A stretch of 44,342 bases of DNA from positions 1 to 44,342 of the IMG/VR virus record IMGVR_UViG_3300043406_000058; one strand, given 5' to 3'. Below the pieces are notes generated by a model. The model was not told the DNA's origin, did no database searches, and worked only from the letters and a program-made list of their open reading frames with translations. Position numbers and translations under genes: made by a program. Positions within the stretch are counted from its first letter, which is position 1; each line of letters starts with the position of its first letter. Shown here piece by piece: positions 20,913 through 27,758 of this stretch. The stretch comes from a virus (lineage: Duplodnaviria > Caudoviricetes).

Positions 20913-21137
20913 TCAGGTGTTGATCAACTCGGCGCGGTAGATTTGGCCAAAGTGCTCGACCACATCGCGGCGGGTTGCCGTCAGCTTCATGTGCGCCTTG
21001 CCGTCATGGCACCAGCCCGAGCCGTCTGCGCACTTGACGCGCTTGATCCAGATGATGCCGTCGGTGCCGTTGTAGCGGACGCGCTCGCTGGCTTCATACT
21101 TGGTGTCAGCGCCGAGGGTGAAGGTGTTCTGTGCCAT
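20913..21137 (-). CDS. Small hypothetical (moron-like) protein
   Basis: 74 aa MAQNTFTLG...; RBS CAGGAG; own terminator. Confidence 0.7.
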   Translation of the reverse strand: MAQNTFTLGADTKYEASERVRYNGTDGIIWIKRVKCADGSGWCHDGKAHMKLTATRRDVVEHFGQIYRAELINT

Positions 21138-21188
21138 GTCGATCTCCTGAGTTTCCGGACCTGCCGTTTGCTGATCCGATAACTGTAT

Positions 21189-21241
21189 TGTCTGACAAAA
21201 CGCAGGACAGCGCAAGCCCTCTTGTGTAGTTTTGTCAGACA
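21189..21241. promoter_or_regulatory. Paired operator-like sites between divergent genes
   Basis: 13-bp perfect inverted repeat TGTCTGACAAAAC...GTTTTGTCAGACA; TTGTGT-16-TACAAT promoter-like element for the + gene. Confidence 0.65.
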
Positions 21242-21255
21242 TTTACAATAGGCGC

Positions 21256-21483
21256 ATGGACACACAACAGACACCAGCGCCCGAGCGGCGCAACCCGGGC
21301 GGGCGCCCAGCCCTGGCTGAGGGCCAGACCAGCGAGCGCATCAACGTGCGATTGACTCCGGCACAGCGGGTGGCATTCGAGGGGGCTGGCGGTGCGCAGT
21401 GGCTGCGCCGACAGCTCGACGCGCTTGGTGCAACGCAACAGGTATCACGCGCCCCTGCTGGAGCTGCTGCGGATGCTGTGTGA
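21256..21483 (+). CDS. Ribbon-helix-helix-like DNA-binding protein
   Basis: GGRP...ERINVRLTPAQR...GGAQWLRRQLD pattern. Confidence 0.65.
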   Translation: MDTQQTPAPERRNPGGRPALAEGQTSERINVRLTPAQRVAFEGAGGAQWLRRQLDALGATQQVSRAPAGAAADAV

Positions 21484-21648
21484 TACGCCAGTGATACGGG
21501 CGCATCGCTTCCCCTCTGCATCCTCCCCGTGAACTACGGTGGGAGGGGTGTCTAGCCCGTGCTGCTGCAGAGTGTAGACCATCACGCCGTTATCATCTCG
21601 TGACACGCTGGCTCACTGGCCGGGTGATACGCACGGGATACGGTATCA
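21480..21648. other. Probable attP region with integrase arm-type repeats
   Basis: Non-coding gap upstream of int; G(T/G)GATACG pairs 11 bp apart at 21480/21491 and 21624/21635. Confidence 0.55.
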
Positions 21649-22686
21649 ATGGCATCAATCCTCAACGTGGGTGGCAAGTGGCGGGCGCTGATCAGGCGCA
21701 AGGGCCACAAGCCGATCTGCAAGACGCATCCTACCAAAGCGGCCGCGCTGGCCTGGGCGCGCAAGATCGAGGCGCAGCTCGACGCGGGGGGTGAGGTCGA
21801 GTCCGACCGCGTCACCGTCGGGGAGCTGATCGACGCCTACCGCAAGCTGCGGGCGGGGTCTCGGCCGATCCTGGACGACAGCAACGAGCACTACATGCTC
21901 AAGGTGCTGCAGCGGCTGCTCGGGGCCACGGATGCCCGGCGGCTGACGACCGAAGACCTGGTTGCCTTCTGTGCCCAGCGGCGCGACGAGGGGGCTGGGC
22001 CGTACACCTGCAACATGGACATTTCGAAGCTCTCAACCGTGCTGCGCTACACCGCCAGCGCGAAGGGGCTGGTGCTGCCGGATGCCGTTGGCCAGGCGCG
22101 GCCGTTGCTCAAGCACCTGGGGCACATCGGCGATGGTGGCCGGCGGGAGCGCAGGCCGACCGAGGACGAGCTGCACCGCCTGGTTGCGCAGATCACCGAG
22201 CGGCGCGGCGTGGTCTACGCTGACGCGGTCCTGTTCTTGGTGGCCACTGCGATGCGGCGCGGGGAAGCGTGCGGGCTGCTGTGGTCGGATGTGGACCACG
22301 ACAAGCGGCTGGTGCTGATCCGGGACCGGAAAGATCCGCGGAAGAAGGCAGGCAATGACCAGTGGGTGCCCCTGCTGCCGGATGCGTGGGAGGTGGTGCA
22401 GCGACAGCCAGAGCCGCGTGGGGATCGGCTGTTTCCGGTCGAGCCTGGAACGCTGTCGAAGTACTTTCTGGATGCGTGCCGGGCGCTGTCGATCCCTGAT
22501 CTCCGTCTGCATGACATGCGCCACGAGGGGGCCTCGAAGCTGTTCGAGGCTGGGTATGAGATTCAGCAGGTCGCCCTGGTCACGGGGCACAAGCAGTGGG
22601 ACACGCTCAAGCGGTACACGCAGCTCAAGCCTGAGGATCTGCACAGGGAGGGGCTGCAGGGTTTGGGGGACAAACCCGGCAAGTGA
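21649..22686 (+). CDS. int: Tyrosine recombinase / phage integrase
   Basis: Catalytic motifs MRRGE, LHDMRH, TGH, LKRYT; N-terminal arm-binding-like segment. Confidence 0.95.
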   Translation: MASILNVGGKWRALIRRKGHKPICKTHPTKAAALAWARKIEAQLDAGGEVESDRVTVGELIDAYRKLRAGSRPILDDSNEHYMLKVLQRLLGATDARRLTTEDLVAFCAQRRDEGAGPYTCNMDISKLSTVLRYTASAKGLVLPDAVGQARPLLKHLGHIGDGGRRERRPTEDELHRLVAQITERRGVVYADAVLFLVATAMRRGEACGLLWSDVDHDKRLVLIRDRKDPRKKAGNDQWVPLLPDAWEVVQRQPEPRGDRLFPVEPGTLSKYFLDACRALSIPDLRLHDMRHEGASKLFEAGYEIQQVALVTGHKQWDTLKRYTQLKPEDLHREGLQGLGDKPGK

Positions 22687-22689
22687 CTG

Positions 22690-23409
22690 CTATCTGACGT
22701 TATGCGCCTTGCGCGCTATCGAAAGCAGCAAGTCGCGGAACGGCAGCGGTGTCGCGTTGCGGATCGCAGTCTTGTTCTTGCCGCCCACCATCGCAACAAC
22801 GCCGATACGCCTGGCCTTCTCGTAGCCGTAGCGCTCGATCATCCATTCGGGCAGGCGCTGCTCCCCCTTCGTCCAGTTCAGTTCCTGCGGCTTGCTGTAG
22901 GTGTTTGCCAGCAGCCATGTCGGCTTGCGGCTGGTGTGGTCGTAGTGCCCCTGCTCCACGTAGCACACCCAGTATCCGCTGCTCGGGTGGCCCATGTCGC
23001 TGCGTTGCCAGCCCTTTCCAATCGTCGGCTTCAGCAAGCCAAACGCATCCCACGCCTTGCTGTGCGCCGGGTGCTCGAGCACTCCACCCCAGCGCAGCAC
23101 GGCCCGCAGCGCATGATCGAAGCACCCGCCGTCATCGCCCAGCTTGTATTGGTGGGGCTTGCGCGTGCTGCCGTGCCAAAACCTGCCCCATCGCTGGCAT
23201 GGTGGGTGCGCAACCACCGGGTGCGGCCCGGCGTAGGTGCGCGCATCGCGGGCTTCGTCCCACGGGTCCACACCAGGCGCGCCAACATAGCAGCCCTTCG
23301 GCTCCACGTAGAGGGCCGCCACCGTCCGCAGGCACTCCACCGGGCGCATAACACCCGTTTCAACCTGACCCACAAGGGCAGGCTGCATCAGCTCGTTTTC
23401 AAAGGTCAT
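22690..23409 (-). CDS. DNA cytosine methyltransferase-like protein (cassette gene)
   Basis: AHPPC (motif IV-like), VLEHP (VI-like), SRKPTWL (VIII-like); no clear FxGxG motif. Confidence 0.55.
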   Translation of the reverse strand: MTFENELMQPALVGQVETGVMRPVECLRTVAALYVEPKGCYVGAPGVDPWDEARDARTYAGPHPVVAHPPCQRWGRFWHGSTRKPHQYKLGDDGGCFDHALRAVLRWGGVLEHPAHSKAWDAFGLLKPTIGKGWQRSDMGHPSSGYWVCYVEQGHYDHTSRKPTWLLANTYSKPQELNWTKGEQRLPEWMIERYGYEKARRIGVVAMVGGKNKTAIRNATPLPFRDLLLSIARKAHNVR

Positions 23410-23447
23410 ATGCTGCCCTTGTGGTCAGGTTAACCGGCGCGTTAGGC
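23346..23447 (+). other. attC recombination site 1
   Basis: R'' GCATAAC-5bp-L'' TTTCAACC-TGACCCACAAGGGCAG...CTGCCCTTGTGGTCA-L' GGTTAAC-6bp-R' GTTAGGC, with extrahelical bases. Confidence 0.88.
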
Positions 23448-23999
23448 GTCAACAGCTTTCACCGTTTCAAGTTGCCACTCGCCGAGCGGCATCCGATCCT
23501 TCGGCCAAGGCTCGTATTGCTCTTGGGTCAATTGCTTTGCCAAGGTTGCAGGGTCAATGCGCTTGCCTTCGCGGTCTTTGATGATGCAGCCGCCGTCGCG
23601 CATGTCGATGCGAAGCTCGATGTACTTGCACTGCGGGTTCTCCATCCAGACCCAGCGGCCTGCGCGTGCCAGCTCGATCACCGCCAGCGCGCCGTCTATG
23701 TGGTCCCACTTCGCGGCCCGCTTAGCTCCAACGTTAGGCTCCAGCGCCTCAAAAAGCGTCGTCTGCCACTCAAGCAGCAGCCCTTGCGCTTCCATGTCGG
23801 CTAACACCTGTGCCGCAACACTACGCAGCTTCGCACCACGCTCGCGCTCGGCGGCCAAGGCGCGCTCAGCAACCGCCAGCGCATAGCGGCCAATGTCGTC
23901 GGCAATCTCTTCAGCGTTACTCACTTCTAACCACGCTTCAACATCATCGACCCACGGCGCGGCGCCCAATATGGCGCGCTTTTGTTCGTCAGTCAGCAT
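23442..23999 (-). CDS. Hypothetical protein, apparently a fusion across an attC remnant
   Basis: RBS AGGAG; stop TAA inside the R' core at 23441; reads through the half-site at 23720-23739 (EPNVGAKR). Confidence 0.65.
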   Translation of the reverse strand: MLTDEQKRAILGAAPWVDDVEAWLEVSNAEEIADDIGRYALAVAERALAAERERGAKLRSVAAQVLADMEAQGLLLEWQTTLFEALEPNVGAKRAAKWDHIDGALAVIELARAGRWVWMENPQCKYIELRIDMRDGGCIIKDREGKRIDPATLAKQLTQEQYEPWPKDRMPLGEWQLETVKAVDA

Positions 24000-24037
24000 T
24001 CAAGCACTCCTAGAATTTTCTTCGCTACGGCCACAGG

Positions 24038-24136
24038 GCCTAACCAGCAAATCGAGGCGAAAGCCCGCAGCCCCGTTCACCGCGCTACAGCACAGTCCGT
24101 GCAGCAGCGGGCTTCGCCTCATTTGCAACGTTAGGC
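24038..24136 (+). other. attC recombination site 2
   Basis: R'' GCCTAAC-CAGCA-L'' AATCGAGG-CGAAAGCCCGC...GCGGGCTTCG-L' CCTCATT-TGCAAC-R' GTTAGGC; extra C and A on top strand (G and T on bottom). Confidence 0.92.
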
Positions 24137-24137
24137 C

Positions 24138-24317
24138 TCACGCGCTCACCGTTGCACCCAGCTCCTGCCACAAGTGGTCTGCGCTCTCGGCGGCCACCTG
24201 CTCCACCGGAAGGGCGTCGGCCTCGGCGTGCGTCCGGGTCTTGCCTTCGCGGGCATCCTGCTCCCAGCGCAGCAGCGCGGCTTCGAGTTGCGGCTTTGTG
24301 ATCTTCAGCGTGTCCAT
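24138..24317 (-). CDS. Small hypothetical cassette protein
   Basis: 59 aa MDTLKITKPQ...; RBS GAAGGA; stop adjacent to the R' core of attC2. Confidence 0.65.
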   Translation of the reverse strand: MDTLKITKPQLEAALLRWEQDAREGKTRTHAEADALPVEQVAAESADHLWQELGATVSA

Positions 24318-24510
24318 ATCGGTCCTTCGGTAGTTGCGCACCGGGGGCGGTGCAGGTGGTGCCGGCGGCCTGGGGTAGGTCGGCGGCGGGTTGGTGAGGC
24401 CGAACTGGCGGGTCAAGCGGACCGCTTACCCTTGTCGTCATCGTCCAGCAGTAAGCCATCGAAGCAGCGCCGGCCAGCGTTGTTCAGGATCATCCCGATC
24501 AGGTTGATCT

Positions 24511-24732
24511 TCATGCCGCCGTCTCCCGCATTGTGTCAAAGTGCTGCGCGACATCGCGAAAATCCGCCCACCGCTTGCCCTGGTCCACGTACGTCTTGAC
24601 GGGGCATGTGCCCGCGCTGACTTGGTTGTAGAGGGTCGTCGGCTTGATCCCCAGCAAGTCGGCGAGCTGCTGGGTGTTGAGGCGGGGGCCGTACCGCTCG
24701 AACACCATGGCTTGGGTCAGGATGCTGCTCAT
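24511..24732 (-). CDS. Excisionase/AlpA-like HTH protein
   Basis: YGPRLNTQQLADLLGIKPTTLYNQVSAG winged-HTH pattern; end of the early operon, near int. Confidence 0.75.
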   Translation of the reverse strand: MSSILTQAMVFERYGPRLNTQQLADLLGIKPTTLYNQVSAGTCPVKTYVDQGKRWADFRDVAQHFDTMRETAA

Positions 24733-25220
24733 CGTGCGGCCTCCGGTGCAGCGGCAAGCATCTCTGCGTAGATGTGCGTGTAGTGGACATTCCATGCCTC
24801 GTTTTGCGCCGAAAGTCCAGCCTCCAGCATCTCCGGCGTCGGCGTCACCGGAACCAACTGCCACCCAGCCGGGATCGCGGGGACGGGGCGGGCGTAGAGC
24901 GGCTCTGTCCAATCTTCTGCAGCACGCCGGTACACCGTCGTGCAGTTTCCGGACTGCAGCCACGCTGCATCGCTTTTGCGGTAGTGAGCCACCGGCTCCT
25001 GCCCCTCCAGCTCCGCCAGCCGTGCGCGCAGGGTGTCGCGCTCCTCCTCCAGGTCCGCCACCCGCTGCTGAAGCGCAAGCCGCTGGGTGTGCTCGGCGCG
25101 GATTGCGATCTCAGCTTGATCCGGCTCATCCTCGCTGGCCTCGTCGAGTTGCCAGCTATATGCCTCGATCAGATCGACGGCCAGTTGCAGCCCCTCAGGC
25201 AGTTTCGTTTCAGCAGTCAT
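24729..25220 (-). CDS. Phage accessory protein (Ea22/DUF551-like mosaic)
   Basis: Coiled coil, then QEPVA...PLYARP...GWQLVPVTPTPEM...YAEMLAAAP motifs. Confidence 0.7.
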   Translation of the reverse strand: MTAETKLPEGLQLAVDLIEAYSWQLDEASEDEPDQAEIAIRAEHTQRLALQQRVADLEEERDTLRARLAELEGQEPVAHYRKSDAAWLQSGNCTTVYRRAAEDWTEPLYARPVPAIPAGWQLVPVTPTPEMLEAGLSAQNEAWNVHYTHIYAEMLAAAPEAAR

Positions 25221-25657
25221 GCTGCACCCCCTACACACATCGCCTCGCACGCCTCGGCACAGGCCACCACCACTTCGTGCGGCGCTGTGCGCATCACCGA
25301 GTCGATGATGGCGGCGCAGTACGCCAGGCGCAGCGAGATTGCCGGCGTCAGCGTGATCGTGCCGTGTGCTGCCCACTCCTGGGCGAGCTGCAGGGCGTCG
25401 TCGATGTGCGGGGCCATCTCGTCCACGCCGTAGCCGATGAGCTGCGTGATCGCGCTGGCGGTGTTGATCGCCTCGACCCACTCGCGCAGGGCCTGCGGGG
25501 CTGTGGCTGGGTTGTGCAGGCGCACCAGGATGACCTCGTGCGCCTCGCGCAGAGCGGTGATCGTGTCGGCCGGCACGCTGGGGCGGATGCCGAACTGGTG
25601 CTGGTGCGGCATGGCCAGCGCTGCCCTGGCCGCTGTGGTGACTTGCGAGAGGGTCAT
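25217..25657 (-). CDS. Hypothetical protein
   Basis: ATG overlaps the stop of the RT C-terminal fragment (ATGA). Confidence 0.65.
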   Translation of the reverse strand: MTLSQVTTAARAALAMPHQHQFGIRPSVPADTITALREAHEVILVRLHNPATAPQALREWVEAINTASAITQLIGYGVDEMAPHIDDALQLAQEWAAHGTITLTPAISLRLAYCAAIIDSVMRTAPHEVVVACAEACEAMCVGGAA

Positions 25658-26069
25658 TTGAATGTCCTGGTCAGTGTTCTGTTTACGCACTTGCCGCGCT
25701 TCAGCAGCGCACGGGCAATGCGGGTCCGGTCGGTATGGCTGGCTGGCGACTGGCGCAGCAGCCCGAAGTAGCTGTTGCCGATCGTGTGGAGGTGTCGGCC
25801 GTGAAGCTGGCGTAGAACCTGGGAGAGATGTGGTTGTAAAGGAGGTGGTGGACGATCCGGTCGCGGAATTCGGCCGCCCAGACCTCACGCGGCTTGGGGC
25901 GTGTGACGACGAAGCAGATCGAGCGGCCGGGTTGGTAGTGACCGCTGATCAGCTCGTCATGCAGTGCGCACAGGTTGTGTTCGAGGTGGGCCTCGAACGC
26001 CTGGGCGCTCGCGCTGTTGCGCTTGGTGCGCCGGCAATCGAGGTAGGCGATCACCAGGCGCTCGAACAA
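25654..26069 (-). pseudogene. DGR reverse transcriptase with internal deletion and frameshift
   Basis: N-terminal RT motifs (AYLDCRRTKR, YQPG, KPREVWAAEFRDRIVHH) to about 25791; then, in another frame, C-terminal NSYFGLLRQ...TRTFK*; no YxDD present. Confidence 0.85.
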
Positions 26070-26075
26070 GTCCGG

Positions 26076-26178
26076 ATCTGCGGACGGCTCGGGCTCGGGC
26101 CTGGAACTTCTTGTCGTTGTTGTTCTGGTTGCCGTTGTTGAAGTTCTGGTTCCAGGCGTAGTCGGCCGAGTACTGCGT
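26076..26178 (-). repeat. DGR template repeat (TR)
   Basis: 103 bp with 8 AAC codons; differs from both VRs almost only at adenines; lies between avd and RT. Confidence 0.95.
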
Positions 26179-26350
26179 TGTGTCGCGCTATCTACGTCGC
26201 CGGGCCGAAGGCTGTTGCCGATCAGCGCGGAAACTGCACCGGGCCGGTCCTGCGCGGGCGCAGCGGTCTCCGTGGTGTGCATGGCGGTGCCCTTGTGGGG
26301 CAGCGGCGCGACCAGATTCAGGATGCGCTCGGGCATGAAGGCCGTGACCG

Positions 26351-26716
26351 TCATGCTGCAGGCGCCTTGTTCGCTGCGGACTTGAGCCAGCCACCACCCT
26401 GCTTGCCGATGCTGTCGAGCAGCGCGACTGATTGCGCCCACAAGCGGTGCGAGACGTACCGGCTGTCGTGGCTCACACGCAGCAACACGGTGGCGGCACG
26501 CAGGTGCTTCATCAGTGCCTGGATGTTGCGCATGCGCTCGCCGTGCTGGGTGGCGTTGGCGAGTGCCATCAGGTCCAGCATCTCGATGCAGTGCTGGCTA
26601 ATCTTGTCGCCCAGCGAGCGTTTGACGCCTCGCGGCATCTGCTCTTGCACCTTGACGGCCAGCGTCAGGAGCTGGACGCCAGTCTTGTAGATCGGCAAGT
26701 CAGTGTGAATGGCCAT
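26351..26716 (-). CDS. avd: DGR accessory variability determinant (four-helix bundle)
   Basis: 121 aa, HTDLPIYK...IGKQGGGWLK, basic; position between target and TR. Confidence 0.88.
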   Translation of the reverse strand: MAIHTDLPIYKTGVQLLTLAVKVQEQMPRGVKRSLGDKISQHCIEMLDLMALANATQHGERMRNIQALMKHLRAATVLLRVSHDSRYVSHRLWAQSVALLDSIGKQGGGWLKSAANKAPAA

Positions 26717-26736
26717 GGCTCAAAAGGATTCAAGGA

Positions 26737-27123
26737 TCAAGCGGTGAATCTGCGGACGGCTCGGGCTCGGGCCTGGCACTTCTCGTCGTTGAAGTACTGG
26801 TTGCCGTTGTCGAAGCTCTGGGCCCAGGCGTAGTCGGCCGAGTACTGCGTACCCGTCCAGTACCACGCCGATGCATCGATCTTGTCGCGCACGTTGGCGT
26901 AGAGCAGGGCGCTCTCGGAGCGGGTCGGCAGTCGCGCTTCGATGTATTGAGCCCATTGCTGGGCAGCCGCCCAATCGAGCCGGCTGGGCGGCTCATCCGG
27001 CAAGAGCACAAGGTGCCCGTCGGGCTGGCCATCTTCTCCGCGCGCGAGTCCGGCGTAGATGCCGCCGTGCTCGGGCCAGTGTTTGCCGATCACCGGGATG
27101 GTGGGGGTCGTTTCAGTTGCCAT
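26737..27123 (-). CDS. DGR target 1, DUF1566/CLec-like protein
   Basis: GGIYAG, LDWAAA, RLPTRSE, WYWTGTQYS...ARAVRR; VR at C-terminus. Confidence 0.9.
   Translation of the reverse strand: MATETTPTIPVIGKHWPEHGGIYAGLARGEDGQPDGHLVLLPDEPPSRLDWAAAQQWAQYIEARLPTRSESALLYANVRDKIDASAWYWTGTQYSADYAWAQSFDNGNQYFNDEKCQARARAVRRFTA
26748..26850 (-). repeat. DGR variable repeat VR1
   Basis: 9 mismatches to TR over 103 bp, 8 of them at TR adenines. Confidence 0.95.
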
Positions 27124-27158
27124 GTGGGGCTCGCTTTCGGTGTGAAGAATTGAAGGAT

Positions 27159-27758
27159 TCAAGAACTGACCTGAACCATGCGGACGGCTCGGGCTCGGGC
27201 CTGGCACTTCTTGCCGCTGCTGTCCTGGAAGCCGTTGCCGAAGCCCTGGTACCAGGCGTAGTCGGCCGAGTACTGCGACGATGACCAGTGCCATGCGGGG
27301 TCAAACGCCTGAGAGCCGTCGGCGCGGAAGTGCTCGACAGTCGTCTGCTGGAGCGAATCGGTGTACGGGTAGCCGGCCGGCAAGCTGCTCGGGTTGTCGC
27401 CATCGCGGAACGTGCAGGCGGTCGTGTGGGTAGTCGGCTTTAGGTGCCGATAGCCCAGTTCCAGCACGTCGCGGGCGGGGATGCACCAGTCGTGGTGCCC
27501 GTTGATTTCGAGGCTTAAGGCTTGCTCGGCCAGCGCGCTGCCGGCTGCTGCCATGGCGATGGTGTTGGCCATGCTGTCGCAGCAGCTGGTCGCATCGGTG
27601 TGGGTGGCTTGGTCGTTCCATGCGCCGAGCAGGCTGCCGTGTTCTTTCGGCGCCCAGATGACGGCAAACGTTTCGACATAGATGCAGATCAGGCCGCCGT
27701 AGTAGCCGCCCTCGAAGGGTTGGCCGATCAGTGGCAGTTTGGTCAAAAACGTAGGCAT
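27159..27758 (-). CDS. DGR target 2, DUF1566/CLec-like protein
   Basis: GQPFEGGYYGG, DWCIPARDVLE, WHWSSSQYS...ARAVR; RBS AAGGA. Confidence 0.9.
   Translation of the reverse strand: MPTFLTKLPLIGQPFEGGYYGGLICIYVETFAVIWAPKEHGSLLGAWNDQATHTDATSCCDSMANTIAMAAAGSALAEQALSLEINGHHDWCIPARDVLELGYRHLKPTTHTTACTFRDGDNPSSLPAGYPYTDSLQQTTVEHFRADGSQAFDPAWHWSSSQYSADYAWYQGFGNGFQDSSGKKCQARARAVRMVQVSS
27179..27278 (-). repeat. DGR variable repeat VR2
   Basis: 13 mismatches to TR over 100 bp, 12 of them at TR adenines. Confidence 0.95.

Follow-up and report, generated by a model that had tools for sequence, protein, structure and literature searches.

An array of integron-type cassettes with bottom-strand genes and no integron integrase in a phage genome

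The phage genome and its cassette array

The stretch of DNA analysed here (44,342 nt, hereafter the window) spans a complete virus record that has direct repeats at its termini. Pfam and PHROG scans identified lambda-like portal, terminase, capsid and tail genes, a primase, a tyrosine integrase (Int) and an excisionase-like gene (xis), and this gene content, with the last two included, suggests a temperate lifestyle. The runs richest in this phage are freshwater metagenomes, which may be where it came from. Relatives of gene A of the array in Rubrivivax MAGs, and relatives of Int at 57–63% in four of 201 genomes of that family, point to a host in the order Burkholderiales.

Four cassette units lie between int and xis (Table 1). 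The preliminary description had counted about four; the number stands, while only two of the bounding attC sites are complete, the others being a half-site and a collapsed site.

Table 1. Features of the int-xis region of the window.
Feature	Position	Strand	Evidence and remarks
Phage tyrosine integrase Int, 345 aa	21649..22686	+	PF00589, phrog_1; convergent with cassette genes
Leader junction	22687..22705	+	12 conserved bases after int stop, then G/TT core at 22699, the start of the first cassette
Gene A	22690..23409	-	phrog_12600, PCQ motif; ATG inside attC1 loop, end across leader core
Cassette A	22699-23440	gene on -	carries attC1
attC1, 102 nt, site of cassette A	23346..23447	top strand +	rule-based scan, fold, register count
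Cassette B, truncated	23441..23732	+	gene 5' end and attC left arm deleted
Fused C-B ORF, 185 aa	23442..23999	-	stop TAA in attC1 R' box; phrog_9782 on B half
attC right arm alone	23720..23739	+	L', 6-nt spacer, R' at 23733; sequence; R1 17.4 bits on +
Cassette C	23733-24129	gene on -	carries attC2
attC2, 99 nt, site of cassette C	24038..24136	top strand +	rule-based scan, fold, register count, model R1
Cassette D	24130..24436	+ (gene on -)	59 aa from ATG 24317; in-frame TTG 24416 in hairpin arm
Collapsed terminal attC, 45 nt	24399..24443	+	R'', 5, L'', 5-nt loop, L', 6, degenerate R' (GTC)
xis, excisionase-like gene	24511..24732	-	PF12728, phrog_1300; last ordinary early gene before the array

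Within the R'' box of attC1, at 23349, gene A has a further ATG. It had no match in Pfam or PDB; its Atlas neighbours are viral hypothetical proteins with one PF00145 cluster at 0.91, and the product likely has a DNA-methylase-like fold. Gene C had no relative in the viral contigs. The half-site is read through in frame, so that genes C and B are fused. A full hairpin precedes gene B (79%) in the contig L265, and both B and D stand behind other attC sites in L265–L268, the copies in the window being deletion derivatives. In particular, cassette D is internally ~100 nt shorter than in L266/L267. The idea that cassette D was freshly made was rejected, as the same cassette begins ~100 nt further upstream in these two contigs. 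The right boundary of the array is the collapsed site, with joints and loose contig ends at 24440–24441.

The ends of the cassettes are complementary, exactly as first described: 22699 pairs with 23343 at 10/10 positions, and 24130 with 24394 at 11/12. In a set of 47 cassettes, the complementarity of a cassette's own ends was 6.7/9, compared with 4.3 for random pairings.

Several other features of the genome deserve mention. Two small divergent, AT-richer ORFs without family matches lie between the lysis genes and int (20913–21483). Upstream of int, two 25-nt arm-like repeats at 21475 and 21619 (21475–21643) form a probable attP. On the minus strand at 25701–27300 there is a remnant of a diversity-generating retroelement, with an Avd gene, a reverse transcriptase reduced to its N-terminal piece, and a match to Rfam RT-15; a 118-nt repeat present three times (26079, 26751, 27179) represents the template and two variable repeats, and the target is Lcl_C. 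This block is absent from the relative L002 described below.

Structure and folding of the attC sites

A rule-based scan of all 44,342 bases called attC1 and attC2 as the sole sites, each being also called, more weakly, in the mirror orientation. Both have the R''-5-L''(8)...L'(7)-6-R' geometry with RYYYAAC/GTTRRRY cores, the R'' of attC1 (GCATAAC) being one base from RYYYAAC. In the canonical register with two extrahelical bases and the plus strand taken as top, 15/17 positions of attC1 and 17/17 of attC2 form Watson-Crick pairs, compared with 9/17 and 10/17 when the minus strand is taken as top; the aadA and cmlA controls gave 15 vs 9. As DNA, the minus strands fold at -27.9 kcal/mol (z -6.1) for attC1 and -35.1 kcal/mol (z -8.1) for attC2, a stability reached by none of 200 shuffles, while the plus strands fold more weakly (-25.0 and -31.4 kcal/mol). 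Scan, fold and register thus agree with the preliminary description, which had placed two complete, canonically spaced attC sites at these coordinates and had taken the bottom strands as the folded form.

The covariance model R1 was built on 12 bacterial attC sites only, eight of them 60-nt aadA-like sites. This small model scored attC2 at 31.2 bits (E 1.2e-5) on the plus strand and attC1 at 15.6 bits (E 0.15) on the minus, i.e., the wrong, strand. R1 also overlooks the closest homologue of attC1 (in L043) and both sites in L113. We ranked the register count above R1 for attC1 because the homologous sites before gene A in L028, L036, L048, L065, L103 and L109 are scored by R1 on the expected strand. 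Additional class 1 and Vibrio records contained too few new long attC sites for a second covariance model. The collapsed site received no R1 score, and its bottom strand folds at -9.0 kcal/mol.

Among 14 long phage attC sites, 15 of 24 stem pairs have changed on both sides, with 93% of the cells paired (0/500 shuffles). The median length of the sites is 94 nt in phages vs 61 nt in host arrays. The rule-based scan finds no sites in the Vibrio and Shewanella arrays, in TJE1 or in MW202573, and therefore is tuned to GC-rich sites. The locus is a CALIN as this term is defined in the available portions of Cury 2016 and Qi 2023, since two or more attC of the same strand lie within 4 kb and intI is missing from their neighbourhood.

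Variation of the array among related phages

In L002, whose int is 95% identical at the DNA level, the two GTT cores that flank cassettes A-B-C in the window enclose a different cassette instead. The two genomes are identical up to GTTA at 22699–22702, and L002 rejoins the window at the start of cassette D, which they have in common. The replacement cassette is unrelated, 360 nt long, and has complementary ends and its own attC with a 5-nt right spacer. A search of the viral contigs with the terminal attC pattern matched the contig of L002 alone.

Contigs from X3, X4 and X6, which represent three studies, none of them the source of the window, follow the end of int to 22702–22706 and then pass into four different continuations (depths 2–8, several of the supporting contigs at 2–4); run X5 had no contig end of that kind behind int. 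Together with cassette A of the window and the cassette of L002, at least six first cassettes have been found at one G/TT. At the other end of the array, contigs of X3 and X4 match exactly cassette D (24129–24440). The same precision is seen at gene A: AAC stands at the aligned place in 18 of 42 distinct gene-A 3' ends, and in 17 of these 18, 17–20 of the 20 bases before AAC are identical, compared with 0–11 of 20 after it. The remaining 24 ends, which are more distant, have no core. The variation among relatives is therefore bounded by the GTT/AAC cores, including the one G/TT where L002 and the contigs of the X runs diverge, as the preliminary description had anticipated.

In many relatives of Int, xis lies within 14 bases of int, and for this reason we regard the array as an insertion. 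No new attC was found behind int in 21 metagenome relatives of Int (57–70%), the leader pattern had no matches in the metagenome contigs, and no INPHARED isolate carries this array (gene A has 14 matches in INPHARED and IntI nine). No recombination event, circle or empty site was seen; a joint between 22702 and 24441 was considered as a candidate empty site but did not hold up, since it lies in contigs of 509 and 553 nt with other DNA between.

Two further observations concern this region. L017 (2488–3027) belongs to a second phage of the Int family; it has one inverted cassette in the int-xis gap, and its xis ends in an attC core. In a contig of X4, the 32-base stretch 22668–22699 stands between two copies of a CRISPR-like repeat, and probably is a host spacer against the junction of the int end and the leader.

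A rival reading is that IntI made the cassettes long ago and that their main route of movement today is homologous or microhomology recombination, with co-infecting phages exchanging DNA at attC arms of similar sequence. This would suit a phage with neither IntI nor attI, with deletions in two of its four units and with a collapsed terminal site. It would also suit the pairing of gene A with several unrelated attC stems, where identity breaks near R'', a pattern of which bottom-strand crossover by IntI gives no account. Nevertheless, the loss of identity at the AAC core in nearly all cored gene-A ends speaks against such recombination. The left flank, shared by six first cassettes, has no hairpin to recombine with, and attC1 travels with gene A in six loci (sites of 74–85% identity before gene A in L028–L030, L038, L043 and L044). 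Hence we consider homologous recombination unlikely as the main route and prefer recombination by IntI.

Orientation of the cassette genes

Every cargo ORF of the array lies on the minus strand, that is, on the bottom strand of attC, opposite to bacterial cassettes. The preliminary description overlooked this. The canonical layout, with a top-strand ORF ending before its attC, is absent from the window. By contrast, in bacterial controls from the probable host family (20 integron regions and L179) the longest ORF was on the top strand in 29/29 cassettes, and in class 1 control arrays the top strand called by the scan is the gene strand.

The inversion extends to other phages. When 80 viral loci, some of them near-duplicates, were oriented by gene A, 85 sites were inverted vs one in the opposite orientation; in 50 genome loci oriented likewise, the numbers were 19 vs one. 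Shuffled DNA (265,958 bases) yielded no sites. R1, although trained on bacterial sites only, gave 79 matches in 14 chosen loci, of which 77 fit the inversion and two oppose it. In one phage (L190, G019), we observed 16 inverted attC in 10 kb, several of them near-identical.

The coding strand was assessed by family scans in 58 non-redundant phage cassettes. PHROGs, which are biased toward phage genes, matched 18/52 bottom-strand ORFs (three being gene A itself) and 0/45 top-strand ORFs; for Pfam alone, the numbers were 2/52 and 0/45. In the window, none of five top-strand frames matches PHROGs, while the bottom-strand ORFs of A and C-B do, and the gene of cassette D has bottom-strand homologues. 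ORF length is a poorer guide: taken alone, it favours the bottom strand in just 25/40 phage cassettes, and the longest-ORF strand test is weak in phages (39 vs 25 of 67) because of GC-rich antisense frames, hence the use of family scans.

An open ATG is present in the loop of 23/42 long phage sites, compared with 6/42 on the top strand, and stop codons often overlap the attC core. Both features would be expected if the hairpins were mainly RNA elements of an early operon, acting in translational coupling, processing or termination, with the cassette-like borders as a by-product; moreover, the mRNA would hold the stronger-folding strand. Still, the 5/8 and 7/6 spacing, the extrahelical bases and the complementary ends are features of IntI substrates, such arrays adjoin intI and attI in other phages, and no Rfam family matches at the array. 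An RNA role of the hairpins may be real but secondary; as the main explanation it is improbable, and mobility by IntI remains our preferred reading.

The source of the integrase

The genome does not encode IntI, in agreement with the preliminary description: the best TIGR02249 score in the scan of the genome was 16.8 bits, and Int reached 23.8 bits in a separate comparison, both far under the cut-off of 265. The leader (22687–22705) matches neither the phage attI pattern described below nor the attI consensus, and no plus-strand promoter-like site, and so no Pc, was found in 21200–25300.

The insertion specific to IntI has a role in hairpin binding. Alignment shows that Int of the window lacks it and is an ordinary phage integrase, scoring 23.8 of the 265 bits. 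Recombination of the attC sites by this enzyme was already held less likely in the preliminary description, and we find it very improbable. Admittedly, the array begins 13 bases after the int stop, and in L017, the second phage of the Int family, a cassette likewise lies between int and xis. On the other hand, most relatives of Int have no attC behind int, the same cassettes occur in phages without such an Int, including a Mu-like one, and the attP of the phage is probably upstream of int, at the arm-like repeats 21475 and 21619. Equally improbable, and already disfavoured, is the capture of the array as a block from a bacterial chromosomal integron, as its genes would have stayed on the top strand like those of all 29 host cassettes, its cargo is phage-type with no more than a 28% match in 20 host integron regions, and relatives differ cassette by cassette.

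There remains an IntI from outside the genome. Among 19 viral records that contain such arrays or Int, most of them fragments, no IntI exceeded the cut-off, compared with 5/8 bacterial genomes in which one did; in the probable host family, IntI was found in 57/121 genomes. The genes of integron integrases are under SOS control. The preliminary description proposed a host IntI acting in trans, and the frequency of IntI in this family agrees with that, but an IntI of another phage or prophage, a source that the description had left out of account, could equally serve.

Such phage enzymes exist. Of 50 genome loci, a single one had gene A near intI; it belongs to a Mu-like prophage of a Rubrivivax MAG (L181:3155–6700, G022:C68), whose early operon includes an intact intI. 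Before this intI lie attI and a cassette; the gene A homologue of the cassette has an internal stop, and the stop of intI overlaps the start of the next gene. In phage G013 (L167:1474–1865), a truncated intI and an attI-like site stand before inverted cassettes. A search of the viral contigs with the IntI of L181 gave 35 loci, 26 of which have in common a compact attI shortly before the start codon. The pattern of this phage attI, which was written after seeing the loci, is present in 20/27 phage-type and 0/11 host-type loci, four of the latter having no upstream DNA. A LexA-like box was found in just 1/27 phage-type loci. In a tree and alignment that left out six near-identical loci, a branch with SH-aLRT 92 separates 23 phage-type IntI from only 10 host-type rows. 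The phage intI and attI are identical in five loci (L212, L213, L215, L216 and L221), whose first cassettes are of three kinds. In INPHARED, the rule-based scan found no attC upstream of the intI of Rctr41k. We place host IntI and the IntI of a co-resident phage close to even as the source of the enzyme, with a slight leaning to the former.

Proposed mechanism and implications

The attC anatomy, the lack of intI and attI, the antisense genes, the cassette-precise variation and the same layout in many phages are supported directly. We propose that this four-cassette int-xis array with bottom-strand genes was loaded and reshuffled by an IntI from outside the genome, and we put the probability of this reading, drawn from sequence comparison, at roughly 0.7.

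Under this proposal, a GTT in the int-xis gap would have received the first cassette through an outside IntI; those that came later would enter at the int-proximal G/TT, a non-attI leader site 13 bases behind int. The enzyme would bind the folded bottom strand and cross over between AA and C. It could be the IntI of the host, which is often LexA-boxed and so might be induced together with the prophage, or that of a co-resident phage. A leftward, repressor-controlled early transcript would read xis, D, C-B and A; owing to the mirror coding, it could express the cassettes without Pc. Long attC sites may offer, in their loops, a ribosome site and a start codon to the gene that follows. Older positions decay, as the deletions in B and D show. 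The choice of enzyme, the use of the strands, the transcription and the use of loop start codons are what we infer here. The reuse of the short leader and the pairing of gene A with unrelated stems lie outside the account of this mechanism.

The preliminary description had also suggested that the phage could carry cassettes between hosts. This found no support: the genes are antisense to attC, and gene A neighbours intI in the single Mu-like prophage locus only. From the passages of Nivina 2016 (PMC5027507) available to us, it would follow that genes so oriented face away from Pc at a bacterial attI.

A broader picture, which we offer tentatively and hold at somewhat less than even odds, is that of a phage integron economy. 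It would include a mirror-coded pool of cassettes, attC hairpins serving as translation-start modules, a clade of phage IntI with its own attI, and IntI-less satellites loading at a short non-attI site behind int. The content of early genes would be tuned by site-specific recombination, and the pool would stay apart from bacterial integrons and be silent in them.

Integrons are treated as bacterial devices, with cassettes obliged to face Pc. An oppositely coded phage pool would mean that the strand choice of IntI can be harnessed for a different promoter, and would provide a site-specific explanation for part of the mosaicism of phage early regions. Counts of attC in metagenomes would then mix two pools. 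The window adds population evidence, as six cassettes at one non-attI site make a short, testable target. In addition, since one and the same gene occurs with several attC stems, the data touch on the still open problem of cassette formation.

Comparison with known systems

Similar to class 1 and chromosomal integrons, as presented in the available portions of Cury 2016 (PMC4889954) and Nivina 2016 (PMC5027507), the window has the attC geometry, extrahelical bases, GTT/AAC crossover and complementary cassette ends. Unlike them, it has no intI, attI or Pc, its genes are on the bottom strand, and attC is upstream of the gene, often with the start codon. The 'inverted integrase' group of Cury 2016, as far as it is described in that text, concerns intI inverted relative to attC, not the ORFs.

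In the accessible part of the work on attG and SALINs (Loot et al., bioRxiv 10.1101/2022.09.11.507474), short GWT sites outside integrons are described as targets at which IntI inserts cassettes, and the leader of the window is such a GTT. The fit of GTT at 22699 to GWT is uninformative alone, with 2,201 GWT in the genome. The window differs in that at least six cassettes have entered at one site; CRGM, the motif of hot spots at +6 to +9, is not evident by eye at the right boundary (24437 onward), and, judged by eye, the leader is not an attG hot spot.

Phage CALINs have already been published (Qi 2023, PMC9892861), and, in the sections of that paper available to us, IntI1 recombined five of six phage attC sites. 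These CALINs are similar to the window in having at least two attC, small ORFs, no intI, a phage setting and methylase-like cargo. The array of TJE1, whose two sites were assayed there, is canonical and not inverted. In MW202573 (L321:2069–2703), one of the 17 phages of that study, the attC matches are opposite to the annotated genes and downstream of the excisionase gene. Genes antisense to attC, population variation at one leader site and a phage IntI group are not described in the portion of the text that we had. Likewise, our literature search, which largely leaves subscription journals uncovered, returned no paper describing phage cassettes with antisense coding or a group of phage IntI; the figures and Dryad files of Qi 2023 may show opposite arrows.

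Further close counterparts of the window are the phage-type inverted integrons (L181, L167, L199–L224), with inverted cassettes at the end of the early operon and, in L181, gene A in common. They have a co-oriented intI and a compact attI at this position, whereas the window has neither. The array is thus a population-variable, IntI-less member of a mirror-coded type of phage cassettes, within the previously known phage CALINs.
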